DNA of 63,580 bases, filler included, from an uncultured Myxococcia bacterium (GTDB lineage: Bacteria > CAZTWC01): the NCBI GenBank assembly GCA_964617105.1. It is 4 parts of 4 records of this genome, joined end to end, with 100 filler letters (N's around TTAATTAATTAA, not from the genome) between each part and the next. Parts side by side here need not be neighbours in the genome. Positions count along the whole stretch, not along the records: positions 48,090 to 63,580 come from CAZTWC010000065.1; 3 more parts are not named here. One strand, written 5' to 3'. The notes under the pieces were generated by a model. It was given only the letters and a program-made list of their open reading frames with translations. It searched no databases and was not told the origin of the DNA. Shown in pieces: positions 15,664 through 63,580 of the stretch. A program made the translations under genes and the position numbers. The first letter of the stretch is position 1. Every line of letters starts with the position of its first letter.

Positions 15664-15989
15664 ATGGAGAAAAACGCCAGATATCTACTTATAGCCTGCT
15701 CTCTTTTTATTGCTTTGGCTATCACCATTCAATTTTTTCAGGAGGCGTTTTATCCTTTTGAAGTGGAACAAGATGAGGGATATCTGCTCAATTCAGCGGT
15801 GCGGCTGAAAGACGGCAAACCGATCTATACCCCTATAGATCAAGAGCCGAAACTGTTCGTAACCGACTATCCACCGGTTTATATTGCCTTGATGGCTTTT
15901 TTTGTAAAAATCTTCGGTCCCTCTTTTACTCCCGCCCGCATGTTCTCCTTTTTCAGCCTGGTGTTATCTACGCTGATAATCTGGCTGGC
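15664..15989 (+). CDS. Membrane protein, 5' fragment (GT-C/ArnT-like N-terminus), truncated at contig end
   Basis: TM helix, then DEG and YPP motifs and a second TM (ARMFSFFSLV); this order is typical of GT-C fold proteins. Runs into Ns. Confidence 0.5.
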
Positions 15990-16089
15990 NNNNNNNNNNN
16001 NNNNNNNNNNNNNNNNNNNNNNNNNNNNNNNNNTTAATTAATTAANNNNNNNNNNNNNNNNNNNNNNNNNNNNNNNNNNNNNNNNNNNN
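15990..16089. other. Artificial contig spacer
   Basis: N44-TTAATTAATTAA-N44, giving stops in all six frames. Confidence 0.98.
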
Positions 16090-31883: not shown

Positions 31884-32001
31884 GCTCAATTCAGTAGGGC
31901 AATATATCATAAAAGAAATTGGTGTGCAAGTGGTTTAACCATCGAGGAAGACTTGATCTGTGTGGAAATTGACTACACTATCCTACATCACCGAAAAAGC
32001 C

Positions 32002-32101
32002 NNNNNNNNNNNNNNNNNNNNNNNNNNNNNNNNNNNNNNNNNNNNTTAATTAATTAANNNNNNNNNNNNNNNNNNNNNNNNNNNNNNNNNNNNNNNNNNN
32101 N
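32002..32101. other. Artificial contig spacer
   Basis: N44-TTAATTAATTAA-N44. Confidence 0.98.
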
Positions 32102-47415: not shown

Positions 47416-47989
47416 ATGCCCTTTCCTCTTGGAAACCTCTCTATATCACCGCCAACTTTCCTGGCTCCAATTGCCGGTTTTACCGACAATGCCTGCCGTT
47501 GCCTATGCCATTATGCTGGGGCCGGTATGGTATTCACCGAGATGGTGAGCGCGGTAGGAATATCCTACAACTCCAAAGGCAGCCTGGACTACTTGGATAT
47601 TCGCGGCCAACAAGGATTAGTGAGCCTGCAACTCTTTGGTCCTCAGCCAAAGATCCTGGCCCTGGCGGCTCAACGGGCGGTGCAAGATGCAAAAAACAAA
47701 TTTCATGCTCTCAATATTAACATGGGCTGCCCGGCAAAAAAGGTAGTCAAAAACGGCTCTGGCGTGGCTTTAATGAAAAATCCTGGCCAGGTCGAGAAAA
47801 TAGTAAAAACCATCAAATCAAAAGTAAATTTGCCCCTGTCAGTAAAATTCCGTTCCGGCTGGGACGCCGCAACCATAAACGCGGTGGAGGTGGCCAGGGC
47901 GGCTGAAGCCGGCGGCGCCGATGCCGTAATAGTACATCCGCGGCTTCGCACCCAACCCTATTACCAACCAGCCCATTGGCCAGTAATCA
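47416..47989 (+). CDS. dusB: tRNA-dihydrouridine synthase (DusB-like), truncated at contig end
   Basis: LAPIAGFTD, FTEMVS, QLFG, NINMGCP (catalytic Cys), VKFRSGWD, VHPR. Confidence 0.85.
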
Positions 47990-48089
47990 NNNNNNNNNNN
48001 NNNNNNNNNNNNNNNNNNNNNNNNNNNNNNNNNTTAATTAATTAANNNNNNNNNNNNNNNNNNNNNNNNNNNNNNNNNNNNNNNNNNNN
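47990..48089. other. Artificial contig spacer
   Basis: N44-TTAATTAATTAA-N44. Confidence 0.98.
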
Positions 48090-48158
48090 GCCCTCGCAAC
48101 AGGTAAAATCAAAAACCGCTACCTTTGGTTTATCAGGCACAAAGCCCAGATATTTCAT
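48090..48158 (-). CDS. First 23 codons of a [NiFe]-hydrogenase small (delta) subunit
   Basis: Reads MKYLGFVPDKPKVAVFDFTCCEG with an AGAGAGG RBS; this is the start of the small-subunit Fe-S motif. Not in the ORF track. Confidence 0.75.
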
Positions 48159-48191
48159 CTACTGTCCTCTCTTATTTAACGAGCACTTAAA

Positions 48192-49106
48192 TCAAATAGC
48201 CTCTTTGAGGTTTAACACGTTCCAGTAATCAAAGACCGGTCCATCAATACAGGTATAGGTGGAGCCAATATTGCAACGGCAGCATTTTCCCATACCGCAA
48301 TGCATCCGCCGCTCCAGAGACACAAACATCCGCTGCATTGGTGTCCCCATCTGGTAAAGACGGTCACAGACAAATTTAAACATCACCGGCGGGCCGCAAA
48401 CAATAGCATAGTTTTTTTCCGCATTTACTTTAACATCATTCAGCAGTTGGGTAATTCTGCCCACCGGCCCATTCCATGCCTGATCAGGCTCATCCACTAT
48501 CACTTTAAGGTTAATGTCATCGATACGCCGCCACTCCTCATATTGGTAATCAAAAAGGAGTTGGTCCGGCCGTCTGGCGCCATAAATAATATACACTCTA
48601 TCGAATTCGGAACGGTTTTCTATCACGTAGGAAAGCGGCGCTCGCAGAGGAGCCAATCCCAGTCCGCCGGCAATCAGCAAAACACTGCTGCCCTTCATCC
48701 TCTCCATGGGAAAACTGGTTCCAAAAGGCCCCCGGATTCCAACTTTTGCTCCACGACGAGCCTTGTGGAGAGCACCGGTAACCACCCCGGCCTTACGAAT
48801 ACACAACTCCAGATAACCGCGGGCTGATGGGGAACTGGAGATAGAGATGGGAATTTCTCCATATCCAGGCACTTCCAGCATAACAAACTGTCCGGGTAAA
48901 AAGCTAAAACGCTCTCTCTCCTCCTGGTCGATAATGCGAATCAGGAAAAGTTTTTCCATCTTTGTCAGGTGAACTATGTTGGTGATCTCGGCCTTAAAAA
49001 CCTTATCCATATGGGACAACCTGCTGCGGCGGTTGTAATCCAAAGGCAGCTGCATCTCGGTCTCTCTGGTAATGTCGTATGGTCGAAGAATTCTATTAAC
49101 GTTCAT
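48192..49106 (-). CDS. Group 3b hydrogenase gamma subunit (FAD/NAD(P)-binding, 2Fe-2S)
   Basis: [53 protein letters not shown]...CIDGPVF. Confidence 0.85.
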
Positions 49107-50175
49107 AGCCGACCCTCCATTTGGCAGGAGTTCCCTGATCTTTCTTAAGATCCTTGATTACATCCACCGGGTTTATTCCAGCCAGGCATACTTTACCGCA
49201 CCGGTTGCAGCCAACGCACATAGGCTCCCCAAAACTTTCTACAAAACCGCGGTGTTGGTGATAGAACCTGTATTTCAGCCTGGTGGCCTGGTTGGGGCGA
49301 AAATTGTGGTCACCCGCCACTGATGCAAAATCAAGGATATTGCATGAGTACAATTTTTTTACTTTGGTACTAGCCGAGTGATCCATGGCTACTTCTTCCT
49401 GTACACCATAGCAATAGCAAGTGGGACACACCATGGAGCAGCTGCCGCAACTGAGGCATTTATCGCCCCATTTTTTCCAGTCTTCCGACTCAAATTCCAG
49501 ATCCAGAAGGATTGGTAACTCCTCCAGGTTAACAATATTTTGGTAATCCTTCTCAAACTTATTTAGAACTTCGACGTAATCCTGGCTGTCCTGGTCGGTA
49601 ACTTCAAGAGTTTCTACCTGTTTGAGGAGATTAAACCCTCGTTCTGAGCCTATTTTTACAAAATATCGATCTTGCAAGTCGGTTAGATAGAGATCAAAAC
49701 CATGGGTTAGAGTATCTGCACCAACTGCCCGACAAAATCCGGATGAGCAGGGCGAATCGCTAATTCCAATGGTAAAAGTGTTTTTTCTTCTGGAAAGATA
49801 ATAGGGATTTGGATAAAAATCTTTGGCAAAGACTTTGTCCAGTTTCAGCAAAGCGGCAATATCACAAGTATGGAGACCCAGCATCACCCTTGGTTGAATG
49901 CGGTAACGGATATCTTGTTCCCAACTGTTATCAGTATACTTGAAAGTAGATAGTTTTTCATTAAAAGGGAGGAAATAGGTTTTGGCCGAGTACTCGGTGG
50001 TTTCATACTCCAGGTCTATCTGACTTTTATCCAGAATAGGGAGAAATTGATGGATTGGCTGGCCATCTACATTCTGGCCAACTTTCCTGGGAGCGATAAC
50101 CTCAATAGACTCGATGAGGATATTAATAAGAACACCAAACTCTTTTTTACCGATTACCCTGAATAACATTCGCAA
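49096..50175 (-). CDS. Group 3b hydrogenase beta subunit (4Fe-4S dicluster)
   Basis: [16 protein letters not shown] and [25 protein letters not shown]; overlaps the gamma subunit start. Confidence 0.82.
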
Positions 50176-50220
50176 TCCCGCTATTAGTTAAAATATTAGT
50201 ATCCATCCAATAAACCACCC

Positions 50221-52254
50221 CTAATTTGTTAGGATAAAGAGGTCGTTTGCTTTTCTGATGACAGCGGCTGGGCCAATAAAAATTACCCGATCGTCTGTCT
50301 CGATTTTAGTATGCCCGCGGGGGACTACAAATTTATTTTCCCTGATGATAGCGGCAATTACACACTCTTTAGGAATATCGAGGTTGCGGATCAATTGACC
50401 AGAAACCTGGGCTTTTTCTGGCACTGTTACGTCCAAAAGACTGGCGGCTCCCAAACCAAATTCATAGAGTTGGGCTAAACCTGGGCGATCGAGCAGATTT
50501 TCGACCATGGTCGCTGTGGCCCAGGGAGCGCTTATAGCCACTACGTTATTTTGCTCGAGCAATTCTGTGTATTCTGGTTCCTGGACAATGGCGAACACTT
50601 TTTTGTGTCCCAATTGCCTGGCCTGAAGAGCAGCAATTACGTTCCGGCCATCGTCATCGTAGGCTGCGATGACAACGTCTATATTATCCAGGCCAACCTG
50701 CTCTAACAATTCTTTTTTAGTGCCGTCGCCTTGATAAATTGGTACATTGTAGTGCTGCTCCAATTCCTGACAGAGCGCTTCTTCGTCCTCAATAAAGGTT
50801 ACCTGATGTTCTGCAGAACGAAACATCATCCGGTACTTGTCTTTGGCCACCAGCCGATTGGCAATATTTTGCCCCTGTCTTTTTCCGCTTATGATAAGCA
50901 CTTGCATACATTTCCTCCCGAGTCTGTATATCAGCCATTTAATTTTTTGGATAAATAAACCTGGTAATTTAGAAATTTCAGCCCTATTGTCAGGCCTGAT
51001 TAAATAGATTGCGCCGCCAACAACAGTAAGTATTCCACCCAAAATAAACGACCTAAATTCTAAGGCTGGCACAAATATCCAGGTAGTTGTGACGCCTAAA
51101 ATTGGGATTAAGGGAAAAAATCTGCATTGATAGGGACGCCTTAGATTGGGCATGCGTTTGTGAAGAGGAATGACGGCGTAATTGATAATTCCAAGCCCCA
51201 TCAAATAGCCGAAATCACTAAGTGATGCTACAAATTTTACAATACCTGTGGCACTGAAGACAACCACGATAAGCGAACAGATAATAAGGGCAATATGGGG
51301 TGTCTGGAATCTTGGATGTAATCTGGCTAAAAAACCGGGGAAATGTCGATCTCGACCTAGGGCGAAGAGGATACGGGCGCTGGCGCCCAGGGTAACACTG
51401 AAAGCGGAGAGGCTAGCCATAATAGTTGCGGTAATGCCGGCCCAGCGGCCCCAGGGACCGAATAATTGATCGGCGGTATGAATAAAGGGAATTTCGCTAT
51501 GGGCCAGGTCTTTATAGTTAGTAACCCCCATCATCACGCCTACTACAAGAACGTAGAATACCGTGCTGATGCCTAAGGTGATCAGAATAGCGCGCGGGAT
51601 GGTTTTAGCCGGGGCAATGATTTCTTCGGAGGCATTGGAAATCAACTCAAATCCTACATAGGAAATATAGATAAGCGCCATGGCCGGGATAAAAGGTTTC
51701 CAGCCCATAGGCGCCAGAGGCTCTAGATTGGCTGGTTCAATATCGGTTAAGCCAAGAAGGGCCACTCCTAGAAGCACGGCCAGCTCTATCAGGTTCATTA
51801 CCGTGATGATGATAATTGCTTTCTTCATACCCCAAAAGTTGACCAGAGTAAAAACTAAGGTGGTAATACAGGTTATAATAGCAATATTGGCGTTTGGTAG
51901 AAAATAGGTACGGATGGTTAAGGCAAAGATAAGCGCGTACATAGCGCAGGCCAGGGTATTGCCAATCCAAAAAAACCAGCCTGTAAAAAAGGCCACCGGG
52001 CGGCTCATAGTCCTACTAACAAAGGAATAACCGCCACCAGCCAGGGGAATAGCCGCTCCAAGTTCACTATAATTCAAAGCGGTAAAAATAGTCATAAATC
52101 CCATGGCTAGATAAACTAGAATACCTAAGGGGCCAACCATTTCCGCCAATTCACCGGGTAGGGCAAAAATCCCCGGTCCCATAGTGGCACCGATGCCTAT
52201 CATCACTGCCATAAACAGGCCCATATTTCGTCTGAAACCTACCTGGTTCGACAT
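50221..52254 (-). CDS. APC-family amino acid permease fused to TrkA-N and TrkA-C (RCK) domains
   Basis: GATMGPGIF, YSELGAAIPLAGGGY, YVGFE, RILFALGRD...LHPRFQTPH; then GDGT...L...G...IDVVIA, DDGRN and IIRENKFVVPRGHTKIETDDRV. Track GTG start is 52260. Confidence 0.85.
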   Translation of the reverse strand: MSNQVGFRRNMGLFMAVMIGIGATMGPGIFALPGELAEMVGPLGILVYLAMGFMTIFTALNYSELGAAIPLAGGGYSFVSRTMSRPVAFFTGWFFWIGNTLACAMYALIFALTIRTYFLPNANIAIITCITTLVFTLVNFWGMKKAIIIITVMNLIELAVLLGVALLGLTDIEPANLEPLAPMGWKPFIPAMALIYISYVGFELISNASEEIIAPAKTIPRAILITLGISTVFYVLVVGVMMGVTNYKDLAHSEIPFIHTADQLFGPWGRWAGITATIMASLSAFSVTLGASARILFALGRDRHFPGFLARLHPRFQTPHIALIICSLIVVVFSATGIVKFVASLSDFGYLMGLGIINYAVIPLHKRMPNLRRPYQCRFFPLIPILGVTTTWIFVPALEFRSFILGGILTVVGGAIYLIRPDNRAEISKLPGLFIQKIKWLIYRLGRKCMQVLIISGKRQGQNIANRLVAKDKYRMMFRSAEHQVTFIEDEEALCQELEQHYNVPIYQGDGTKKELLEQVGLDNIDVVIAAYDDDGRNVIAALQARQLGHKKVFAIVQEPEYTELLEQNNVVAISAPWATATMVENLLDRPGLAQLYEFGLGAASLLDVTVPEKAQVSGQLIRNLDIPKECVIAAIIRENKFVVPRGHTKIETDDRVIFIGPAAVIRKANDLFILTN

Positions 52255-52498
52255 AAACACCAGTTCCCGAAATTTAAAGGCATTTCACCCGAAATTGCCT
52301 TCTGATTTATAAAATACCAACACTGGATATTAGCAATGAGTGTTTGAATTGTCAATTGTTGTAGAAATCAAAAGATGGCTCTGAAAAATGATCTCAGATC
52401 TGTAATATTTGAGATTCCCGCTTTCCAGATTGGGTCGCATATGGTCATTGTTGCTAATTTTGATTGACAATCAATAATAACCATGATAATTGTTATGC

Positions 52499-53833
52499 AT
52501 GGTTGCTTTATTGTCAGAAATCAATAATAGACTGCTTAGATTCAATCCCTGGATAGTTAAACCAGATGCCTATCAAAAATATATTTCTCCTTTCTTGCCG
52601 GAGAAATACATCCCCAGGCAACTCGATCGAGTAAAAATTTCTTCAAAACAAGCCTTGGTCATTATCGGACCGCGTCAATCGGGCAAATCCACTATCGCCT
52701 GGCATCTTTTGAAACCATTTTTCCCCAATCTCCTTTTTTTCAACATGGAAGATCCATTGTTAAAAACAGGATGCGTTTCAGCAATAGAAATGATTTCTCT
52801 TATTCGTTCAGATTTTCCTTTTATAAAGGCTATTTTTATTGACGAAATCCAGCACCTGGAAGAGGCAGGATTATTCGTGAAAATGATGGTGGATGCCAGG
52901 TTTAATTTACCTATTATCGTTACTGGTTCTTCCTCTTTTCATTTAAGGAGCAAAACAAGGGAGTCCCTGGCGGGCCGGGCAATCCGCAGAATGCTTCTAC
53001 CCTTTTCCTTGCAGGAACTGCTTGACGATATTCAGCCTTCAAATGATCTGGCCATGAAAGAAGTTTGTAATGAGATAGTCGGTCATCAATTGATAATCGG
53101 TTCCTATCCTTCAGTATATTTAGAAAAAAAAATAGAGGACAAAAAGATCATATTGAGTGACCTGGTCGAGGCGCTAATATTAAGAGATGCATCCGATATT
53201 TTTAAAATTAAAAGAATCGATGCCTTTCGAAAACTTATGACTCTGTTGGCAGGTCAAATAGGCAATTTGATAAATGTTTCGGAATTAGCCGCGCACTGTA
53301 ATGTCAATGTGGGTTCAGTCAATGCCTACATCGAGATAATGGAGGAAAGTCATATCATAAAAAGGCTCAGACCTTTTGTCGGTGGTAAACGCCATGAAAT
53401 AACCGGCGCTCCAAAAATATTCTTTATTGACAATGGTATTCGGAATCAGCTTTTGAATAGTTTTTCAACGAACATAGATTTGAGGACAGACCGGGGACCA
53501 CTTTTTGAAAATTGGCTTTTTAGCGAAATATACAAAGCCTTGCCCTTTCAGGCTACAATTAAATATTGGCGCAGCAAATCAGGAGCGGAAGTCGATTTTA
53601 TCATTGAATTTGCCAATCAGTTAATAGGCATAGAAGCCAAGGCAAGTAAATTAACAAAAACCAGGTTGAGTAAATCGGCAACCAGTTTTGTCAAAGCCTA
53701 TAAACCCTTGAAACTTGCCATCGTAAACCTATCTCTGGACATGCAGGCAGAATATGGAGGAACACAGATAGATTTTATCACACCCCCAGGGTTGTTGAAA
53801 TGGCTCGACTCGATTCACACTCTGTCCGGCTGA
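52499..53833 (+). CDS. AAA+ ATPase with DUF4143 and C-terminal PD-(D/E)xK-like motif
   Basis: GPRQSGKS, IFIDEIQ, TGSSS, ESLAGR, KIFFIDNG, LFEN, EVDF...IEAK. Confidence 0.88.
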   Translation: MVALLSEINNRLLRFNPWIVKPDAYQKYISPFLPEKYIPRQLDRVKISSKQALVIIGPRQSGKSTIAWHLLKPFFPNLLFFNMEDPLLKTGCVSAIEMISLIRSDFPFIKAIFIDEIQHLEEAGLFVKMMVDARFNLPIIVTGSSSFHLRSKTRESLAGRAIRRMLLPFSLQELLDDIQPSNDLAMKEVCNEIVGHQLIIGSYPSVYLEKKIEDKKIILSDLVEALILRDASDIFKIKRIDAFRKLMTLLAGQIGNLINVSELAAHCNVNVGSVNAYIEIMEESHIIKRLRPFVGGKRHEITGAPKIFFIDNGIRNQLLNSFSTNIDLRTDRGPLFENWLFSEIYKALPFQATIKYWRSKSGAEVDFIIEFANQLIGIEAKASKLTKTRLSKSATSFVKAYKPLKLAIVNLSLDMQAEYGGTQIDFITPPGLLKWLDSIHTLSG

Positions 53834-53916
53834 AATGGTAGTCAACACCCAGCGGAAAATGGGTTTGACCTCCGGCCTTCCAGAATCGGTAAATTTCCCC
53901 TCCATTTCCTATCCCT

Positions 53917-56900
53917 CTATCCCGAATAGTTATGCTGAAGTTTTCTCAGGGAACTGAAGACCAAATCCAATTCTCCTTTGAATTGCTCTAGAAGCAGAGA
54001 CAATTTATCACTCTCACCATTTTTGAGTTCAGACTCCAGGCTGGTGGCCAGGTCGGCCAATTTTTCAGCGCCAATATAGATTGCCGAACTTCTCATGGAA
54101 TGGGAAAGCCGCTGGGCCTGCCTAAAGTTACCATCTTTATTGGCCGTTATCTCTGTAAAAACATTCTGGTAACAATCAAGGAAATTGGCAACGAGTTCCA
54201 TGTATAACTCCTGGTCGCCGCCAATATTTTTAATAGCCCTGTTCGCCAGCACCGCTGGTAACTGCTCCCCGGTCAACTCCGTTTTCATTTGCGGATCAGT
54301 TATCTCCGCATTTGTAGGCTCCTGTTTTATCCATTTTTTCAAGGTGGAAAAGAGTACGTTTTCTGAAAATGGCTTGTTGATATGATCATTCATACCGGCC
54401 TTCAGGCTCTTCTCCCGGTGCTCAGCCATGGCATGGGCGGTCATAGCGATTATGGGAACATCTTGATAGCGAGGTTCAGACCTGATAATTTTTGTAACCT
54501 CTAAACCATCCATTTCCGGCATTTCAATATCCATTAAAATCAGATCAAAATCCTGCTCCTTTAAAGCCTCTATAGCCTGTCGGCCATCGGCTGCAACAGT
54601 AATCTTAAAACAGGCCTGCTTCAGAAACTCAGTGGCCACCAGTTGATTGATTTTGTCATCTTCCACCAGGAGCACTTTTTTGTTTTTAAAGTAAAACAAG
54701 GGAATTTCCTCTATGTTCTTTGAGGTCGATTTTTGTGCCTGCGGACCAACTGCCCCATCGATCTCGTAGTTTACCGCCTCAAATAACGTATTGATTACCA
54801 TGGAAGAACTAAAGGGTTTTGCTAAAAATAACTGGCGAATACTATCCTCTGTTTCAGCCTGAATCTGCTCCTGTTCGTAGGGTGAACAGATAATTACGAT
54901 GGGAATATTTAGCAGTTTTAATTTGTTCATGACAATTTTAGTTTCTATTCCATCATTATTATCCCTCTGGTAGTCAATAAAAATCAAATCGTATCGATTC
55001 TGTTCAAGTTCTCTCCTAACTTCTTCAATGGATGACCTCTCATCCGCCTCTATGGACAAGGAGGATAAAATACTCTTTAGAATTATTCTGGCTGAGTTAT
55101 TTCCCTCAACGATCAATGGGTGAAGTTTTTTAATCTGGTCAGGTATAATCAACCCTTCCAAATGATTATCATCAACTCCCAAAATAACTGAAAAGTAAAA
55201 ACAACTCCCTTCCCCCACTTCGCTTTCCACCCAAATATTTCCACCCATCTTTTCAACCAGGCTCTTACATATAGCCAAACCCAGACCGGTGCCGCCGTAC
55301 TTCCGTGTAGTTGAACTATCAGCCTGACTAAAGGATTGAAATACCTTGCCCATTTGTTCTTTGGGGATACCGGAACCCATGTCTTTTACAGAAAATAGCA
55401 GTTTCAATTTTCGAAGGGAGGGATCACTTTTTTCCTGCTCAGAGAACAATTCCACCTTGATCACCACTTCACCTTTTGCCGTGAACTTGATGGCATTGTT
55501 GGTCAGATTAATCAGCACCTGTCCCAACCGCAGCGGGTCTCCCTGCAGACATAGTGGAACAGCGTCCTCGATATGATAGAGGAACTCAATCCCTTTCTGG
55601 TGGGCCCGCAGGGTAATCAAATCGGCCAAACTGGAAAAAGTCTCCTCCAGATTGAAGGGTATATGCTCTATCAGCAGCTTCCCGGCCTCTATTTTGGAAA
55701 TGTCTAAAATGTCGTTGATAATTCCAAGCAACGAATTCGCCGCCCCCAATACCTTGTCCAAAAAATCGGCCTGCTCAGAAGTCAAATCAGTTTTCAGAGT
55801 AAGTTCGGTCAAACCTACAATGGCATTCATGGGCGTGCGGATCTCATGGCTCATGTTAGCCAAAAAATCACTCTTTACTTTCACCTTGGCTTCTGCCGCC
55901 TCTTTGGCAATGATGGCCCGCTCTTTCTCCTTTCTCTCAGTAATATCCACCATGGTTCCTTCATAGGTTTTCTGGCCGGAAATCTCTTTAATCAATCTGG
56001 CGCTTATGGTGGCCCAAAACACTGTTCCATCAATTTTATCAATTTGAACCTCAAGTTGGTTAATCTCGCCCTGCTCCTCAAGAGTCTTTAGAATAGAAAT
56101 AGCATCTTTTTTAAAATGGTAATGTCTGACCATAGGAATCTGAGCAGCCATTATGTCCGCTTTTGATTTATAACCAAGGAGTTTGATAAAGGCGGGATTG
56201 GCGGTTAGAATCTTCCCTTCGTTATTAACCTGATAGATCCCTTCAAATGCCTCCTCAAATATTCTGCGATAGTTCTCCTCCTTTATTTTAATTTCTTCTG
56301 CCATCGCTTTGACAGCGGCAAAAGATTTGGAAAACCGTTGGGAAATAATATAGGATTGGACAAAAATAAACACAAAGAGGCCATACTGGAGCAGACTCTG
56401 ATAACCGGTAATAAAAAAGTGCTGGGCATAAAGAATATCATTGATAATAGTGGATATCAGCACTAAAAGACCGCCAATTACCCAGATAGCGCCGTCTCTT
56501 TTATTGATAACTCCTTTGACTAAAACCATAACTAAATAGATAACAGCAAAAAGGATGATCAACTGGTAAAAGAGTTCAGTCTGACAGAATATTTTCGGGG
56601 GCGTGACCAGGACAATCAAACTGAATATAGCCCCAATAACTTGAAAAAATCTGAGCACAGAGAGGGAAAACTCCCGGGGATAAAGTTTGTAGATAAAGGT
56701 AGTAAACACTGGCAGGGCTAGATAGTATCCCAGCACGATAATGGTCACATTGAGCCGCCAAGTAAGACTGGGGAACAGGGTGGAAAAATAAACATCGCCA
56801 GTAGCGGGAATCCGCAAGGCGATTATTAAGCAGAAAAGGCCAAACAGCAGGTTAGAGGCATCGTCCCGCCGTAAAAGAAAGAGGGCAAAATGGTAAAAGG

Positions 56901-57567
56901 CCATTATCAGGATGGCACCAAATAGGATAAAATTTAATACCAGGGAGAGTTCCCGTTGTTGATGCAACTGGGAGGACAGACCAAACTCAATTGAATCACG
57001 GACACCGCCGTCTTTGTGGGCAAAATTGGTCACCTGCAGTATCAATTCCACTTTTGTCTGTTTTAACGCAAAGGAGGTCACATTGGGAGAATACTTTGGT
57101 GTCGACTCCTTTTCGCTCTTACCCACCTTGCCACTGGAGAAGATGGGCTTGCCATTTATCCATATTTTATAAGCAGTATATATTTCACCCGTTTTAACGG
57201 CAAATATCTTTGGAGAGCCGTTCAAAACAACAGTCAACCGGTAGGTGCCGAACCCTTCATGGGGCAGGGCTTTATCGCGCCATTGTGCGTCATTCCAAAT
57301 CTCGGGTACTTTGAAATAGTCTAATCCTTCTGAGGAGATTGGGGCGGTAAAATCCCGGGGAGATAAAAGTTGCCGCCAATAGAACTCCCATTGGCCATCC
57401 AGTTTGACTGTACCATCCTGCTGGAAATTCCACTGGCTGAGGTCGAGAATACCATTGCGGACTTTTGGAGGGGTTTTTTGGGGATATTCCGGGCCGCAGG
57501 CAGTAAAAATCAATACTATGGCCACTATTAGCCATAACATTTTGTTATTGTCCAGAATATTAATCAT
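53917..57567 (-). CDS. Hybrid sensor histidine kinase (extracellular domain, 7TM-DISM, PAS, HisKA, HATPase, two REC, Hpt)
   Basis: LDGQWEFYW, 7 TM helices, PAS-like region, [41 protein letters not shown] (Hpt). Start uncertain; the track gives 57600. Confidence 0.92.
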
Positions 57568-57719
57568 AATTGTTGGTGAAACTCTTGGAAAAAAAACCAA
57601 AAAGTGTATTATATATTACAATAGAATCGTTCAATCTGGAAGGAAAAACTGACACTCGATGTTAGGAAATGTCCTACATCTGTGAGTCGGATGGGTTTTT
57701 GGGAGGTACAAGGAAATAC

Positions 57720-57780
57720 TTGCCAAATATTCGTTGGTGCTTTACAGTTAACTTAAAAATGTCAGCTGGATTTTTTAAGT
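57720..57780 (+). promoter_or_regulatory. Sigma-70 promoter and adjacent inverted repeat upstream of the second AAA/DUF4143 gene
   Basis: TTGCCA-N17-TACAGT (57720-57748), then ACTTAAAAA-N12-TTTTTAAGT (57751-57780). Confidence 0.5.
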
Positions 57781-57790
57781 ATGGTTAAAA

Positions 57791-58927
57791 ATGAATGAGT
57801 TAACTCGCTATAGTGAATCGGTGATTACCAATGACTTGGCCAAAAAAATGGTTTTTTTGGCTGGCTCAAGACAAAGTGGCAAAACAACCCTAGCCAAAAA
57901 GTTACTGAGAACATTTAATCAAAGTATTAAAGCAAGATATTTAAACTGGGATTCTGGCCGGGACAGAGAAAAAATCATCAGGGAGAGTTTTCCCGCCGGC
58001 CGGGGTTTGCTGGTATTGGACGAAATTCACAAATACACCCGTTGGCGCCAGGCAGTCAAAGGCCTTTACGATAAACGGGGTGATGACTTACAAATCCTGG
58101 TTACCGGAAGTGCCAAACTCGATCATTATCGCCATGGCGGTGACTCGCTTCAGGGCAGGTATCATTTTTATCGGCTCCATCCACTCTCATTTGCCGAAAT
58201 TGGTGGACAATCTATCTCTGACCTTAAAGACCTGCTAACTTTCAGCGGTTTTCCCCAACCATTTTGCCTGGCCTCGGAAAGGGAGACAAAACGGTGGAGC
58301 CGCGAATACCGCACCCGGCTGATTGGCGATGAATTGCAAGACCTGGAAAAAGTCAAAGATATCGCACTGGTCCAGCAACTTGTCCTCAGGCTTCCAGATT
58401 TGGTTGGTTCTCCATTGTCTATCAACAATCTTCGCGAAGACCTCCAGGTAGCCCACCAAACCGTGGCCCGATGGATTCAGATTCTTGAAAATCTTTATAT
58501 GATCTTTAGGGTCTATCCATTTGGCAGCCCACTCATAAGAGCCGTTAAAAAAGAGGCAAAACATTACCATGCTGATTGGACGGTAATTTCTGATCCGGGG
58601 GCGCGCTTTGAAAACCTGGTGGCCTGCCATCTCCTCAAATGGTGTCATTTTCTTCAGGATACCGAAGGCAGGGAGATGGAACTCCGCTATTTTCGCGATG
58701 TGGAACGCCGGGAAGTGGACTTTGTGATCATGGAAGACAATACTCCAATTCAGTTGATTGAATGCAAAACATCACGCCGGGATTCAACCCGGTCACTCCG
58801 CTATCTAAAACAACGTTTTCCTCAGGCGTCCGCTTTTCAGGTAGACCTTAACGGCCAACAAGATGTTGTTGACAAAGATAATATACATCAAATCCCGGCA
58901 ATAAAATTTTTAGCAGGGTTGGTTTAA
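57791..58927 (+). CDS. AAA+ ATPase with DUF4143 and C-terminal PD-(D/E)xK-like motif
   Basis: GSRQSGKT, LVLDEIHK, VTGSA, GDSLQGR, RFENLVA, EVDF...IECK. Confidence 0.88.
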   Translation: MNELTRYSESVITNDLAKKMVFLAGSRQSGKTTLAKKLLRTFNQSIKARYLNWDSGRDREKIIRESFPAGRGLLVLDEIHKYTRWRQAVKGLYDKRGDDLQILVTGSAKLDHYRHGGDSLQGRYHFYRLHPLSFAEIGGQSISDLKDLLTFSGFPQPFCLASERETKRWSREYRTRLIGDELQDLEKVKDIALVQQLVLRLPDLVGSPLSINNLREDLQVAHQTVARWIQILENLYMIFRVYPFGSPLIRAVKKEAKHYHADWTVISDPGARFENLVACHLLKWCHFLQDTEGREMELRYFRDVERREVDFVIMEDNTPIQLIECKTSRRDSTRSLRYLKQRFPQASAFQVDLNGQQDVVDKDNIHQIPAIKFLAGLV

Positions 58928-58955
58928 GTTTTTCCGAAAAAGTAATTTATCAGAA

Positions 58956-60218
58956 TCAAATACTTGCCAGAACTTTGTCTAGTGCCCTGATTAGATCGCT
59001 CTCATCTTCGATTCCCACTGAGATACGTACCAAACCATCGGTTACTCCGGCTTTCTCCCGTTTATCCTTGGGAACACAGGCATGGGTCATTGAGGCTGGG
59101 TGTTGAATTAGAGAATCTACGCAACCAAGCGATACCGCCAGGGTAAAGATCTTGATGTTGTCCATCAACTTCCGACCTGCTTCGATACCGCCTTTAACAT
59201 CAAAAGAGACCATTCCGCCAAAATTTGCCATTTGACGTTTAGCCAATTGATAATCGCGATTACTCTCTAAACCAGGATAATAAACCCGCTCCACTTGGGG
59301 ATGATTCTCCAAATATTGAGCGATAGCGATAGCATTAGCACAGTGTTTATCCATGCGAACAGGCAAAGTTTTGAGTCCCATGTTTACCAGCCAACAATCA
59401 AAGGGACTGGGAGAAGTACCCACATCTTTTAGTGCATTGTAGGTATTTGCTTTAATCTCATCATCAATGGTGGTCATAATTCCGCCAACCACCGTTCCAT
59501 GGCCGCCAAGATACTTGGTGGTAGAATGGATCACTACATCGGCACCCATGGAGAGCGGTCGTTGAAGATATGGGGTAGCAAAAGTATTATCCACAATTAC
59601 TTTCATATTGGCATTAACATTTTTTACGATTTTCACCAGGGCAGGAATGTCCGTGATGGTCAGCATGGGATTGGTTGGTGTTTCAAACAGAATTGCCCTG
59701 GCACCGGGATTAGCCTCTACCACTTTTTCCACCGCCTTTAGATCGGAGGTATCTACTTCTATTACATTGATTCCTAAACGGGATAAAATTGTTTGAGATA
59801 GATGCTCTGTCGCACCATAAACAACATCTCCCATAATCAGGGTATCACCCTGACTGCATATGGCCAAAATGGTTGAACTTATAGCCGACATACCAGAGGA
59901 AAATGCCATTGAGGAAACACAAATATCGGGATTGGCAATCTTTACCTCTTTTCCTTCCAGAGCGTTCATTTTGGCCTCCAGAAGTAAAACGGTCGGGTTG
60001 CCCAGGCGGGTATAAACATATCCGGGTTGTTTGCCGGCAAAAATATCAGCCCCCTCCTGTGCACTTTGAAAAACAAAAGTTGATGTTTGATAAATGGCCC
60101 CAGAGTGAGAAGTCTGTTGGGGCTGGCCAATGTGTTCACCAGAATGAAGTGTCCTGGTAGCAAAGCCGCAGTCAAGATAAAATTTTTCTAAAAAATCTGG
60201 TGCTTTTGAGTCTTCCAT
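58956..60218 (-). CDS. Cys/Met-metabolism PLP enzyme, methionine gamma-lyase-like
   Basis: IYQTSTF, YTRLGNPT, SGMSAI, ETPTNP, DNTFATP, HSTTKY (PLP Lys), LAVSLG, HPASMTH, RISVGIE. Confidence 0.85.
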   Translation of the reverse strand: MEDSKAPDFLEKFYLDCGFATRTLHSGEHIGQPQQTSHSGAIYQTSTFVFQSAQEGADIFAGKQPGYVYTRLGNPTVLLLEAKMNALEGKEVKIANPDICVSSMAFSSGMSAISSTILAICSQGDTLIMGDVVYGATEHLSQTILSRLGINVIEVDTSDLKAVEKVVEANPGARAILFETPTNPMLTITDIPALVKIVKNVNANMKVIVDNTFATPYLQRPLSMGADVVIHSTTKYLGGHGTVVGGIMTTIDDEIKANTYNALKDVGTSPSPFDCWLVNMGLKTLPVRMDKHCANAIAIAQYLENHPQVERVYYPGLESNRDYQLAKRQMANFGGMVSFDVKGGIEAGRKLMDNIKIFTLAVSLGCVDSLIQHPASMTHACVPKDKREKAGVTDGLVRISVGIEDESDLIRALDKVLASI

Positions 60219-60480
60219 TAAATTAATCTCCCTTGTCCTACTGTGTCATATAATTATTGTTTCTATAGCGGTTATTATTACCATTAACGACAAATGTTCT
60301 GTAATACCCGCACCCTATTTTCTTTTTTAACGTCCAATATTATGATATCTAATTTAACGAAGTCTATACATATAAAACAATAACTAGTGCCCTGTCAATC
60401 ATCAGTTGTATCTGACTGGTTTGTCAAAGGCTAAAAAGCCCCCACTGGCAGTTTCATTTGTTCGGCCGTTTTTTGGAGAG

Positions 60481-60594
60481 TTATCCCCGATTTATATTAT
60501 AGTAGATCGAATAGTATTTATCAGCTTGACCGTTAAATCGTCTTGTGCTATGTTTCCGGAATCTGACTCCGGAATCTTGGGTTTTATACCACAT
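60481..60594 (-). pseudogene. Integrase N-terminal remnant (older copy)
   Basis: MWYKTQDSGVRFRKHSTRRFNGQADKYYSIYYNINRG-stop is homologous to the remnant at 61990-62230. Confidence 0.7.
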
Positions 60595-60636
60595 TATTCG
60601 GGGATCGTCTAACGGCAGGACAGCAGACTCTGGATC
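60491..60636 (+). repeat. Left copy of a ~146-bp imperfect direct repeat (other copy 62127-62272)
   Basis: Constant offset of 1636 nt; includes promoter, leader and tRNA 5' half. Confidence 0.92.
60598..60636 (+). pseudogene. Displaced 5' half of tRNA-Gln(CTG) (att site)
   Basis: TCGGGGATCGTCTAACGGCAGGACAGCAGACTCTGGATC covers the acceptor 5' strand, D arm and anticodon loop, then unrelated sequence follows. Confidence 0.88.
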
Positions 60637-60670
60637 AGATTCCCCCGCAAAACACATAATGAATGATAAC

Positions 60671-60700
60671 AAAGGGTTGGCGAAATTGCCAGCCCTTTTT
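60671..60700 (+). terminator. Rho-independent terminator just inside the element's left end
   Basis: AAAGGGTTGGC-GAAATT-GCCAGCCCTTTTT. Confidence 0.75.
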
Positions 60701-60853
60701 GGTTTCTTGAAGTCGTTTAGTCCCACTATAGTCCCACCTTTTCTGGGAATTGGGGGGAAGGTTGACAGTAACAGGGTACCTATACTGGACCAGAACACTT
60801 TTTTTGAGTATATTAAATGTTCTTTAAATTGTATGCAATAAGGTGCCATCTTT

Positions 60854-60900
60854 ATTGTAATTACAATATGATTGACAAATGAGCAAAATGTAGTTACAAT
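60854..60900 (+). promoter_or_regulatory. brnTA promoter with operator palindromes
   Basis: TTGACA (60872-60877)-N17-TACAAT (60895-60900); palindrome ATTGTAATTACAAT (60854-60867) and a near-copy overlapping the -10. Confidence 0.75.
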
Positions 60901-60905
60901 TTAAT

Positions 60906-61175
60906 ATGGAATATGAGTGGGACGAAAATAAAAGAATTGCAAATATAGCCAAGCACAATGTTGATTTTTCTGAGGCTGAAAATTTTGATTGGTCTTCAGC
61001 CCTGGCAACAGTTGATGATCGGTTCGAATATCAAGAAGAGAGGTGGGTGGCTTTAGGTTTGATAAATAACCGCCTTCATGTTCTTGTTTATGCTTTTCGG
61101 AATGATAATATACGCATTATCAGTCTCCGGCGGGCCAATAAAAGGGAGCAGGATTATTATGAAAAAAAAACCTGA
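60906..61175 (+). CDS. brnT: BrnT family toxin (RNase)
   Basis: MEYEWDENKRIANIAKHNVDF, DDRFEYQEERW, IRIISLRRANKRE. Confidence 0.92.
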   Translation: MEYEWDENKRIANIAKHNVDFSEAENFDWSSALATVDDRFEYQEERWVALGLINNRLHVLVYAFRNDNIRIISLRRANKREQDYYEKKT

Positions 61176-61452
61176 GCACATAAGTCAAAAAGATTGGGAT
61201 GATGTGGCGTCACCTCCTCTTTCAAACGATATGCTGCAAAAATTAAAATCTGTGGGTAAACTACATCCCCAGATACCTGCCAGGGTTAGAGGGCCACAAA
61301 AATTACCGGTGAAAAAACAGCTTACTATTCGGTTGAATCAGGAAATTGTTGACTATTTTAAAAACCAGGGAAAAAGCTGGCAAACACAGATCAATGACGT
61401 CCTGATTGAATATGTAAAGTCGCAAAAATCTGACCGTTCTCGAATCGGATAA
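61159..61452 (+). CDS. brnA: BrnA family antitoxin
   Basis: RGPQKLPVKKQLTIRLNQEIVDYFKNQGKSWQTQINDVL (RHH-type C-terminus); overlaps the brnT stop. Confidence 0.9.
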   Translation: MKKKPEHISQKDWDDVASPPLSNDMLQKLKSVGKLHPQIPARVRGPQKLPVKKQLTIRLNQEIVDYFKNQGKSWQTQINDVLIEYVKSQKSDRSRIG

Positions 61453-61671
61453 ATTTTTTAATGTAAGGTTGTCCACAAGTATCAGCACCATCTCTGCACG
61501 TAGTGCCAGTAAATGATCATCTCCTCTCCATAAATCTCATATTATCAACAAATAAACGGTCGTTAAAACATCAATCATATCAACACGAAAACCTTGACTT
61601 AAGTATTGATATATTATAATATTTAATCCTTAATGTCGGTTTGCTTATTGAACAACTATCTTGAGGTTAAA

Positions 61672-61964
61672 ATGGCTAAAAATAGGTCAAATAAAAAAAT
61701 CATTGGTTATCTTCGAATATCAACCGGCCAGCAGGATTTAGAAAATCAGAGATTCGGAATTTTACGATTAGCAAACCAGCACAATTGGGGGTAAAATTAG
61801 GCCGACCTAAAGGACCCGGAAAGTCTAAACTAGATGGTAAAGAGAAAGAGATAAAGTCTCTTCTGGATAAGGGGGTTGGCATCGCCTCAATAGCTAAGAT
61901 TTACGATTGCTCCTGGCCCTGTGTGAAAAATTTTATTGCCAAAAAAATTAAATTGTCCCCATGA
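61672..61964 (+). pseudogene. Serine recombinase (resolvase) with internal deletion and frameshift
   Basis: MAKNRSNKKIIGYLRISTGQQDLENQ...NWG-stop (61792-61794), joined out of frame to GVKLGRPKG...IASIAKIYDCSWPCVKNFI (HTH). GAGG RBS. Confidence 0.85.
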
Positions 61965-61989
61965 GCCTTTGGTTTCAGTAGCAGTACCA

Positions 61990-62230
61990 ACTCTCTTGTT
62001 TCAGCCAAGGTTTGGGCACCGTCTCCGGTTCTATAGGCTTCCCGCAACTCACTTCTCTTATTCATTGCCTTTTGGGCATTCATCCCTTCAGATGCCCAGC
62101 CTAACCCTTCCTCTTTGAGTTTGTTGTTTATTTTATAGCGAATGGCAAAGTATTTATCAGCTTGACCGTTAAATCGTCTTATGCTATGTTTCCGGTATCC
62201 GACACCGGGATATCGGGTTTTATACCACAT
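61990..62230 (-). pseudogene. Tyrosine integrase N-terminal fragment; catalytic domain deleted
   Basis: MWYKTRYPGVGYRKH...DKYFAIRYKINNKLKEEGLGWASEGMNAQKA...RTGDGAQTLAE matches the N-terminus of deltaproteobacterial site-specific integrases as recalled; adjacent to the att site. Confidence 0.75.
62162..62190 (+). promoter_or_regulatory. Predicted tRNA-Gln promoter embedded antisense in the integrase CDS
   Basis: TTGACC-N17-TATGTT with extended -10 TG; same hexamers at 60526-60554. Confidence 0.65.
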
Positions 62231-62233
62231 TAT

Positions 62234-62307
62234 TCGGGGATCGTATAACGGCAATACGGTAGACTCTGGATCTGCTTATCTAGGTTCGAATCCTAGTCCC
62301 CGAGCCA
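62234..62307 (+). tRNA. tRNA-Gln(CTG)
   Basis: TCGGGGA/TCCCCGA acceptor stem, anticodon arm GTAGA-CTCTGGA-TCTGC, CTAGG-TTCGAAT-CCTAG T arm, encoded CCA. Confidence 0.95.
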
Positions 62308-62317
62308 GCATTATTTC

Positions 62318-62352
62318 AAGGGCTTAGCCAGTTTTGGTTGAGTCCTTTTTTT
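62318..62352 (+). terminator. Rho-independent terminator after tRNA-Gln
   Basis: AAGGGCTTAGCCA-GTTT-TGGTTGAGTCCTT followed by a T-run. Confidence 0.75.
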
Positions 62353-62483
62353 GTTGGTGGATAAGATGTTGCCTCCCACCCCTGCCCCTGTCCAAATATT
62401 TTTTAACTCAAAATAAAGCAGCGTGGTAAAATAATTGATGGCTGGATTTTACGGCGCATTTGATAAATTTGGAGGAACCATTC

Positions 62484-63521
62484 ATGTCTTATCAAGGAAT
62501 AATTGACTTTAGATCCGATACTGTAACCAGGCCGTCAAAAGCGATGATTGAGATGATGGCATCGGCAAAATTGGGCGATGATGTGCTGGGTGATGATCCA
62601 ACCGTAAAATTGTTGGAGGAGAAAACCGCTCAACTTTTTGGCAAAGAGGCGGCCATATTTGTCCCCACGGGGACCCAGGGCAATGTGATTGCCTGCAAAC
62701 TGTGGACCCGGGAGGGGGAGAGAGTGCTTCTGGAGGATCGTTGCCACATCTACAATTTTGAAACTTCTCAACTGGCCATGATCTGTCGACTTATGCCCCG
62801 GCCCCTGGCCTCCAACCTGGGAAAAATTCCTCTGGAGAGGCTGGAGGCGGAGATGGTGATTCCGGAAGATATTCACCTGGCCCGCACCACTCTTTTGGTC
62901 CTGGAAAATACCCATAATTTCTGGAGCGGCGCCATCTTGTCGCCAGATTATCTGGAATCTGCCTACAAACTGGCCCACCAACACGGTTTGAAACTGCACT
63001 TGGACGGAGCCCGCCTTTGGAATGCCGCAGCGGAAACAGATATCCCCCTAAAAAGCTTCACTCAATGGACCGATTCGGTTATGGCTTGCTTCTCTAAGGG
63101 GCTAGGTGCGCCCATTGGCTCTATCTTGGCCGGGCCCGCCGATTTTATCCTGGAAGCCCGGCGAATCCGAAAAATGCTGGGTGGAGGCATGAGGCAGGTG
63201 GGGGGACTGGCGGCGGCAGCCCTCTACGCACTGGAGCACAACCGGGCCCGATTGGTAGAGGATAATCGGCGAGCCAAAAAGATGGCGGAGTTTCTGGCCC
63301 AAATACCGACCCTGGAGGTGAACTTAGAGGCGGTGCAGACAAATATAGTTTTTGTGCGGGTAAAGGAAGAGGGGATGGTGGATAAGTGGTTAGCTTCCCT
63401 GCAAGAGAACGGCGTGTTGACCGAGATCGTGGAAAAAGACACCATCCGCCTGGTAACTCACCTGGATATCGATGATGATGATGTGGAGAGATTTATCAAA
63501 CTGGCAGCAAAGTTTTTTTAA
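62484..63521 (+). CDS. ltaE: Low-specificity L-threonine aldolase
   Basis: DFRSDTVT, GDDVLGDDPT, PTGTQGN, LENTHN, HLDGARL, FSKGLGAP (PLP Lys), GGGMRQ; GGAGG RBS before ATG 62484. Confidence 0.92.
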   Translation: MSYQGIIDFRSDTVTRPSKAMIEMMASAKLGDDVLGDDPTVKLLEEKTAQLFGKEAAIFVPTGTQGNVIACKLWTREGERVLLEDRCHIYNFETSQLAMICRLMPRPLASNLGKIPLERLEAEMVIPEDIHLARTTLLVLENTHNFWSGAILSPDYLESAYKLAHQHGLKLHLDGARLWNAAAETDIPLKSFTQWTDSVMACFSKGLGAPIGSILAGPADFILEARRIRKMLGGGMRQVGGLAAAALYALEHNRARLVEDNRRAKKMAEFLAQIPTLEVNLEAVQTNIVFVRVKEEGMVDKWLASLQENGVLTEIVEKDTIRLVTHLDIDDDDVERFIKLAAKFF

Positions 63522-63580
63522 CAGCCCGTTCTCTAAAATGTGTACAAATCTGTACACGGCTTAGTTCCTGCTTCATCGAG

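Follow-up and report, generated by a model that had tools for sequence, protein, structure and literature searches.

Decayed tandem elements appear to have supplied the 5' half of a tRNA-Gln(CTG) gene in an uncultured Myxococcia bacterium

The tRNA-Gln(CTG) gene of an uncultured Myxococcia bacterium (NCBI GenBank assembly GCA_964617105.1) directly adjoins the start of a truncated integrase gene, and a displaced second copy of its 5' half, which also adjoins an integrase remnant, is located 1636 nucleotides (nt) upstream. The genes are part of a 63,580-nt stretch of DNA, which we refer to as the window. It is likely that the arrangement was produced by two decayed, related elements inserted in tandem, an older element A and a newer element B. 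Both would belong to one lineage of tyrosine integrases that recombine in the anticodon loop, and their attachment site (attP) would carry the tRNA's 5' half. The elements appear to be the source of the front half of the tRNA-Gln gene, and probably also of its promoter. Genomic islands land in tRNA genes more often than anywhere else, and nearly all of them repair the 3' end of the gene, so that the tRNA promoter is kept.

The source of the window is a metagenome-assembled genome (MAG) of 489 contigs, which is 96% complete. Four contigs are chained in the window with runs of N at positions 15989-16089, 32001-32101, and 47989-48089, and therefore features across those gaps are not genomic neighbours. 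The array is located on contig C65 (window positions 48090-63580), and both copies of the repeat described below are on this single 15.5-kb contig. The coordinates of the features are listed in Table 1.

Table 1. Features of the tRNA-Gln(CTG) locus, in window coordinates
Feature	Position	Strand	Basis or remark
Older integrase stub, from element A; 38 codons, then a stop	60481-60594	-	ATG 60594-60592, 3 nt from the displaced half
Left copy of the sigma-70-like motif TTGACC-17-TATGTT with TG, within the integrase stub	60526-60554	+	Consensus match
Displaced 5' half of tRNA-Gln(CTG), positions 1-39	60598-60636	+	Anticodon loop 60628-60634, core 60625-60636
Terminator-like hairpin and T-run, 34 nt beyond the displaced half	60671-60698	+	Consensus match; precedes the arm pair
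Arm-type pair TAGTCCCAC x2, 11-nt spacing, then T-run (putative P' arm of element B)	60718-60745	+	Strict signature search
BrnT toxin gene, 89 amino acids	60906-61175	+	PF04365, E 2e-26, 92.5 bits (cut-off 34.5)
BrnA antitoxin gene	61159-61452	+	PF14384, E 2.7e-15, 56.9 bits (cut-off 26.1)
Broken serine recombinase, two fragments	61633-61964	+	Start of Resolvase N-terminal domain and end of HTH_7, in different frames
Truncated integrase of element B, 109-codon open reading frame	61901-62230	-	ATG 62230-62228, 3 nt from the tRNA
Sigma-70-like motif TTGACC-17-TATGTT with TG, right copy, inside the first 25 codons of the integrase	62162-62190	+	Consensus match; 44 nt upstream of the tRNA
Resident tRNA-Gln(CTG), interpreted as a hybrid of the element B 5' half with the native 3' half	62234-62307	+	ARAGORN; anticodon loop 62264-62270
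Terminator-like hairpin after the tRNA	62318-62347	+	Consensus match

A repeated tRNA 5' half that ends at the anticodon loop

A repeat search identified one long direct repeat of 151 nt (60491-60641 and 62127-62277), the copies of which are 86% identical and spaced by 1636 nt. In a BLAST search of the whole genome, the second copy was recovered with an E value of 1.6e-45, and the repeat occurs in exactly two copies; no third copy was found in the genome, including when the 39-nt half was searched alone. The original prediction, made from the sequence of the window, had placed a 39-nt tRNA half at this distance upstream of the intact gene, as the repeat search and ARAGORN confirm, but had missed that the repeat continues for about 107 nt upstream of the tRNA. 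That additional part is minus-strand DNA coding for the N-terminus of the integrase. At the other end, the similarity between the copies stops after the common segment AGACTCTGGATC (60625-60636 and 62261-62272), 2 nt beyond the 7-nt anticodon loop, in agreement with the shared core across the loop that the prediction had described. What is duplicated is the 5' half, and a search of both the contig and the rest of the genome gave no matching 3' fragment. Contigs C80 and C6 contain short exact matches to the tRNA core, which are inside coding regions and were taken as chance.

The resident gene is the sole tRNA-Gln(CTG) among the 36 tRNAs in the assembly, and matches the Rfam tRNA model with 56.5 bits (E 5.7e-11). 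In the region 60300-62500, Rfam detected nothing besides this tRNA except a chance match to SAM-VI (E 0.93).

The two tRNA halves differ at five of 39 positions, and the differences affect base pairs of the D-stem and anticodon stem, as had been predicted. Pair 12:22 of the D-stem is C-G in the left half and A-T in the resident half, with both sides changed, whereas pair 13:21 is T.G in the left half and T-A in the resident half, with a single side changed. Anticodon-stem pair 27:41 is C-G when the left half is combined with the resident 3' part, but a T.G wobble in the resident tRNA. Similarly, position 25:43 is A-T with the left half and G.T in the resident gene. When the left 5' half was joined computationally to the resident 3' part, the reconstructed tRNA adopted a cloverleaf fold with an energy of -25.9 kcal/mol and an anticodon stem made entirely of Watson-Crick pairs, compared with -23.0 kcal/mol for the resident tRNA, which contains the T.G wobble.

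The left half was also compared with tRNA-Gln(CTG) genes from metagenomes, which were retrieved using the backbone of the tRNA half as a search pattern, with the five differing positions left free. The scan returned 20 loci (L102-L121), which are ordinary tRNA-Gln(CTG) genes with their own promoters. At the four differing stem positions, all 20 genes carry the letters of the left copy, and none those of the resident gene. Since the better pairing partner of the resident 3' part is the left half and all of the metagenome genes are left-like, the resident 5' half may be the incomer; the metagenome argument is suggestive rather than decisive because the 20 loci are from GC-rich, unrelated bacteria.

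The metagenome loci differ from the window in their neighbouring genes. In 19 of the 20, a tRNA-Glu(CTC) gene follows about 0-85 nt after tRNA-Gln(CTG), and the remaining locus, L104, ends inside tRNA-Gln. Unlike these pairs, the tRNA-Gln of the window stands alone ahead of a terminator. One locus, L117, has a distant recombinase downstream.

Integrase remnants adjoin both tRNA copies

The first 80-90 residues encoded by the element B open reading frame (ORF) are homologous to tyrosine integrases of about 400 amino acids, and the homology in the alignment fades at residues 80-90. Ten of 201 candidate proteins gave significant matches, with lengths of 381-447 amino acids, E values from 1.4e-21 to 2.1e-13, and N-terminal identities of 48-66%; all ten of these longer homologues carry the domain PF00589. 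The left-hand stub of element A is 69-71% identical to the N-terminus of the right-hand integrase over 35-36 residues (tblastn), and the 38 codons common to the two integrases include 3 synonymous and 13 non-synonymous differences.

Pfam gave no match in either integrase ORF, so the C-terminal catalytic domain PF00589 (R...HxxR...Y) was not detected in them. Because no remains of an integrase C-terminal part were found on the contig, and the left copy comprises only 38 codons before the stop, both integrases are dead pseudogenes, for which the established fact is their ancestry among tyrosine integrases.

The same genome contains a second member of the integrase family (L002, contig C415, 1230-2217), 243 amino acids of which are present before the contig end cuts it. 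It is 47% identical to the window fragment and has the classical layout of the family, with the 3' half of a tRNA-Leu(TAA) about 170 nt upstream, together with four TATCCCA(C/T) repeats and one inverted copy. ARAGORN found no intact tRNA-Leu(TAA) in the assembly.

The left junction resembles a family attachment site

Relatives of the integrase have, adjoining the integrase start, an arm signature that consists of a tandem pair of 8-11-nt repeats with 11-nt spacing, followed by a T-run. A strict search found the signature in 27 of 77 family loci but only three of 1540 shuffled sequences. In the region 60400-62400 of the window, the TAGTCCCAC pair is the only signature site on either strand, and it is positioned 81 nt to the right of the core of the left copy.

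In the four integrated relatives that were examined (L027, L077, L157, and L160), the arm pair recurs at the opposite element end, where the tRNA 3' half borne by the element comes first, a terminator hairpin second, and the pair third; the pair is downstream of the intact tRNA. The hairpin that follows the displaced half in the window corresponds to this terminator. The left end of the window array has the core, the terminator, and the pair, without the tRNA 3' half that the relatives carry at this place. Because the first three components are present and the 3' half is absent, we read the left junction as attL: it has the form that attL of a 5'-restoring element should have, with the P' arm of the family and a tRNA 5' half meeting at the anticodon loop.

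The array shares with anticodon-loop elements a same-orientation direct repeat of a tRNA part that is bounded by the loop, and arm-type repeats beside the core, but the part restored is not the 3' part. It has the organization of a 5'-restoring island, in which a 5' fragment lies upstream of an intact tRNA in the same orientation, with an integrase in the interval.

Two further observations concern these regions. In many of the family loci L008-L087, the 300 nt upstream of the integrase contain paired GTGAAG-like repeats between the arm pair and the tRNA core, which may be candidate binding sites for a second protein. The left junction of the window is covered by overlapping long ORFs on opposite strands, 60481-60849 (-) and 60545-60841 (+), neither of which has a Pfam match.

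The integrase family normally restores tRNA 3' halves

The usual behaviour of the family was determined from two sets of loci. The first set contained 80 loci from species genomes, 77 of which had enough upstream DNA, and these were compared against a small tRNA set. A tRNA-like match was present in 51 of the 77 loci. In 44 of the 51, only a 3' part was matched; it is on the strand opposite to the integrase and points away from it, a median of 196 nt upstream. An intact tRNA was found beside the integrase in four loci, a 5' part reading toward the integrase in two, and another class of match in one. The second set consisted of 29 loci: 401 genomes of the phylum to which a Desulfovibrio (G043) belongs were searched, of which 26 matched and supplied these loci. 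In this set, 15 of the 17 loci with a tRNA-like match had 3' parts. A family search of 401 genomes in the phylum of a Haliangium (G042) gave no match at E 1e-10.

L027, L077, and G710 have the classical layout: behind an intact tRNA lies an island of 4-17 kb with the integrase at its far end, and then comes the 3' fragment. The 3' fragments in these three begin 0-4 nt before the anticodon loop. The tRNA-Gln(CTG) gene is used by G710 and L028, as in the window. These comparisons place the crossover of the family in the anticodon loop, with the 3' half as the part normally restored.

A different organization is found on contig C2 of G725 (L160, 1516-1717; L135, 1743-1992), where a family element of about 9.4 kb is located between two complete tRNA-SeC genes. 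The tRNA-SeC copies share 94% identity, and the variable arm has a compensatory pair difference between them. One of the copies has its 5' end 152 nt from the integrase, and identical TGTACCCCACA pairs are present on both sides of the element. Its attP seems to hold a whole tRNA together with a -10 region. Removal of the 3' half from an attP of this type would give the type proposed for the window, which makes it a possible and plausible intermediate.

Several loci were considered as counterparts of the window and rejected. L065 and L082 have ordinary 3' fragments adjoining the integrase, plus neighbouring tRNA genes. The 'tRNA-Gln' reported by ARAGORN in L134 is a 3' fragment with a forced 5' part, and the intact gene is 17 kb away. 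L011 and L135 represent the whole-tRNA attP instead.

A candidate tRNA promoter inside integrase codons

Since the integrase ATG is 3 nt from the tRNA, the promoter of a hybrid tRNA would have to be in the integrase coding DNA. The best candidate is the sigma-70-like motif within the first 25 codons of the integrase, as judged from its sequence; in both copies its -10 hexamer is preceded by TG. The promoter-like block 62150-62190 is identical between the copies at 40 of 41 positions, and the 21 nt before the tRNA (62213-62233) at 20 of 21. These two blocks, set against the 3 synonymous and 13 non-synonymous codon differences, fit conservation of the copies at the DNA rather than the protein level. 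About 45 nt past the -35 hexamer the older stub comes to an end, as though deletion had proceeded only up to the start of the tRNA promoter.

A hairpin (60554-60574 and 62191-62217), terminator-like in both copies, separates the promoter-like motif from the tRNA. Its fifth stem pair is changed on both sides, A-T versus T-A. The hairpin overlaps the codons of the conserved integrase motif PGV(R/G)(Y/F)R, and codon choice may explain the change in the stem.

Proposed history of the array

The position of an integrase stub directly upstream of the displaced half points to a tandem array of two elements. In the direction of the tRNA, the attP of these elements would consist of the integrase gene reading away, 3 nt, tRNA positions 1-30, the anticodon-loop core, about 34 nt, the terminator hairpin, and the arm pair. 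Crossover in the loop, presumably catalysed by the integrases whose remnants are preserved, would leave the element on the upstream side of the crossover point. The 5' half present until then would be stranded, together with its promoter, at the left end, where the hairpin of the element could stop their transcript. The 5' half of the element would be joined to the native 3' half, and the hybrid tRNA would then be transcribed from element DNA. In the order of events that we propose, element A integrated first and was deleted down to the 38-codon stub and the tRNA half. Element B would have entered the hybrid tRNA of A, pushing the older half to the left, and later have lost most of its integrase and serine recombinase, while the brnTA pair was kept.

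The original prediction, in which an element upstream of the gene had donated the 5' half of a hybrid tRNA, is supported by several independent lines. The integrase N-terminus abuts the 5' end of the tRNA, the repeat ends at the crossover site of the family, the left copy is followed on its right by the P'-arm architecture, pairing with the resident 3' part is better for the left half, and the 20 metagenome genes all carry the left-half variants at the four stem positions. Two parts of the prediction need to be modified. The left half is displaced, as had been proposed, but it is not a pristine native half of the bacterial attachment site (attB), because it has its own 38-codon integrase stub upstream. 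Likewise, the integrative element is there, but as a 1.6-kb remnant with both integrases dead.

A more detailed scenario can be offered tentatively, as a possibility that we do not favour strongly. A lineage in this 3'-restoring family may have switched to carrying the 5' half while retaining the same anticodon-loop crossover, with about 25 integrase codons doubling as the tRNA promoter and the dead stubs kept by the host. The switch would probably have passed through an attP with a whole tRNA, as in G725. The host would have kept the stubs since these now drive its only tRNA-Gln(CTG), and such retention would explain the survival of exactly the promoter-bearing 38 codons in the older copy.

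Several observations weigh against the history of two tandem 5'-restoring elements. The left half looks native and yet has an integrase stub upstream, which forces the extra assumption of an earlier element with a canonical half. The arm pair is present only on the side away from the integrase, with none on the integrase side, and the sequence ahead of the integrase ATG contains no Shine-Dalgarno motif. The promoter and terminator calls are consensus matches only, and the region has 18 promoter-like sites where 6.0 are expected, so single sites are weak evidence. No intact element with the layout of the window was found in the family loci, viral contigs, or metagenome scan. None of the approximately 106 family loci has an integrase start within 100 nt of the 5' end of a tRNA, and they include no intact element with the integrase beside the 5' end of tRNA-Gln, which the original prediction had named as a check. 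An integrase N-terminus upstream of tRNA-Gln is present in 0 of the 20 metagenome loci. A degenerate junction pattern matched nothing in viral contigs, where the 89-residue integrase fragment gave only two irrelevant 15-residue matches. Host-relative searches at the family, order, and phylum levels returned only the genome itself, and the comparison set of 'relatives' shares no rank with the host but the domain. No joints of an empty site or excised circle were reported in contigs from four runs, as would be expected if both integrases are dead.

Alternative explanations

It is unlikely that the attP of element B held a complete tRNA-Gln, so that integration left two intact genes, the left one of which lost its 3' half by ordinary deletion. 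The element of G725, with complete tRNA-SeC copies (94% identical, 9.4 kb apart) and arm pairs on both sides, provides a precedent, and redundant copies are free to decay. Nevertheless, only by chance would a random deletion have landed on the crossover boundary; the end of the left copy, 2 nt past the loop, mirrors the 0-4-nt offsets of the 3' fragments in L027 and L077. An earlier integrase-bearing element would still be needed to account for the upstream stub. Integrase N-terminal coding DNA in both copies also makes it very unlikely that the tRNA 5' half and the region upstream of it were merely duplicated locally in tandem, with no site-specific integration and with the mobile genes inserted later. 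Such a duplication would be compatible with the presence of two copies only, and with the failure to see an intact element or excision product. It does not account for a boundary at the crossover site of the family, or for an arm signature at the expected place by the left boundary. Furthermore, the copies are only 86% identical, and the compensatory D-stem difference indicates that both halves were once under tRNA constraint.

We regard as highly improbable a split integrase of the SSV/pTN3 type, the reading frame of which would cross the attachment site in the circular form and lose its N-terminal extension upon integration. The attP of pTN3 overlaps the integrase gene in the account given in PMC5495485, and in the window an open minus-strand frame covers 213 nt of element DNA in addition to the stub and the tRNA half (ORF 60481-60849, 122 amino acids), and the right-hand frame is likewise open across its tRNA half. 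Against this, the aligned MxKW motif is at, or no more than 8 residues from, the start of nine of ten full-length homologues, and P0010 alone is longer, with an extension of 23 residues. Neither Pfam (no match) nor a homologue search (0 of 52 candidates) identified anything similar to the 85-residue extension, which would encode a strong terminator hairpin. A long opposite-strand ORF overlaps it, so the region is simply poor in stop codons. That the arrangement is an assembly or binning artefact, a concern raised by the 489 contigs of the MAG and by the N-joined composition of the window, is hardly credible. Both copies are on one 15.5-kb contig, and copies that differ by 14% are not expected to be collapsed into one. 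The stretch is present in eight public runs from two studies, labelled as marine or seawater metagenomes, with none recorded as RNA. Separate assemblies of individual runs from the two studies gave contigs that bridge each copy on both sides with 0-1 differences; one of these runs may be the source of the assembly itself. The left copy is joined to its unique flanks in X3 record 20 (60324-61089; 0 differences) and X2 records 11 and 12, and the right copy in X1 record 7 (61879-62748; 0 differences), X2 record 14, and X4 record 31 (1 difference). Misassembly, which the original prediction had named as one possible refutation, is excluded to the extent that contigs allow.

Cargo and flanking genes

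The 1.6 kb between the repeat copies contains a BrnT/BrnA pair, the broken serine recombinase, and the truncated integrase, and is cargo typical of mobile DNA. The brnT and brnA genes are adjacent, and both encoded domains exceed their Pfam cut-offs, as in type II toxin-antitoxin systems of the BrnT/BrnA kind. The start of brnA was inferred at an internal ATG; the gene overlaps the end of brnT, and the pair looks intact. The serine recombinase fragments score slightly under the Pfam cut-offs (PF00239, 22.4 bits with a cut-off of 23.3; PF02796, 20.6 bits with a cut-off of 23.8). The GC content is 0.33-0.41 within 60.6-62.0 kb, compared to 0.43-0.56 in the flanks.

Two genes to the left of the array there is an AAA_14/DUF4143 ATPase gene (57791-58927). 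It is flanked on one side by a gene for a hybrid histidine kinase of 1227 amino acids and on the other by a methionine gamma-lyase-like gene. The best named matches of the protein encoded by the latter are 68-75% identical and are from MAGs labelled Planctomycetota, Pseudomonadota, Myxococcota, and Bradymonadales.

Comparison with known systems

Replacement of the 5' part of a tRNA is a rare kind of integration, as had been predicted, and has already been described in print for the archaeal pTN3, a few bacterial exceptions, and the arg2 islands of Klebsiella. The review of archaeal tyrosine recombinases in PMC8371274 states, citing Williams 2002, that a rebuilt bacterial tRNA gene keeps its original promoter with very few exceptions, and that the tRNA's 5' half is used by pTN3-like integrases, a situation seldom met in bacteria. 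Crossover in the anticodon loop corresponds to the symmetric sublocation of Williams 2002, as referred to in sections of PMC8371274 and 10.1101/2020.11.02.365908. The configuration filter of Islander, in the description given in PMC4383910, accepts 5' fragments upstream of the tRNA; the order of 5' fragment, integrase, and intact tRNA in the window is such a configuration. The same account mentions tandem arrays at tRNA sites.

What is new here is a 5'-restoring lineage within a 3'-restoring family that uses the same sublocation, as seen against a literature survey that is incomplete. New as well is that the codons of an integrase, a tRNA half, and a candidate promoter for the tRNA are packed together in a compact, overlapping module. 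The locus is a clear bacterial mirror-image case in an otherwise rule-following family, with the whole-tRNA site as a plausible intermediate, and bears on how integrases change their target geometry. It would also show how dead mobile DNA can become essential host regulatory DNA, and island-finding software should also seek 5' fragments upstream of tRNA genes. The case opens no long-standing question, and its elements are remnants.

Among the systems with which the locus can be compared, the dusA-specific integrases, as described in PMC4482086, insert into the 5' end of their target gene, but the target is protein-coding and the integrases are of another family. The islands of Klebsiella pneumoniae with integrases of clade I.d are bacterial and located upstream of the target tRNA gene arg2, unlike all others in the survey reported in 10.1101/2020.11.02.365908; from their description in that survey, they differ from the window in their D-loop sublocation and integrase group. 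The pTN3-like integrases of Thermococcales share with the window an attB in the tRNA's 5' half, an attachment site that touches the 5' end of the integrase gene, and a tRNA that is reconstituted but separated from its promoter (legend of S2 Fig, PMC5495485). However, they are archaeal, of the SSV type, and split by integration, whereas the window is bacterial and the evidence does not support a split. Moreover, the tRNA of pTN3 is expressed from the integrase promoter according to a passage of PMC8371274, whereas the integrase and tRNA of the window diverge.

A clean bacterial 5'-restoring island is present in the Chlorobiaceae genome G041, where contigs C23 (L124, 1501-2661; L123, 1501-1575) and C10 (L085, 5700-6843) contain 5' fragments of tRNA-Arg(TCT), each followed by an integrase of about 340 amino acids. 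On C23, the intact tRNA is 18.5 kb downstream in the same orientation, with the integrase between the fragment and the intact gene, as in the window. The differences are that the G041 integrase adjoins the displaced fragment, reads in the same direction, and is about 30% identical to the family reference integrase P0003, in the C-terminal part only, and that the fragment on C23 spans most of the tRNA, so that the crossover would be near the T arm.

The classical anticodon-loop islands resemble the window in their integrase family, as judged by N-terminal homology, in crossover in the loop, in the arm pair and terminator, and in the formation of tandem arrays. They carry the 3' half, are located downstream of the tRNA, and keep the native promoter, whereas the window has the 5' half and an element upstream, and its integrase starts 3 nt from the tRNA instead of at the relatives' median distance of 196 nt from the fragment.

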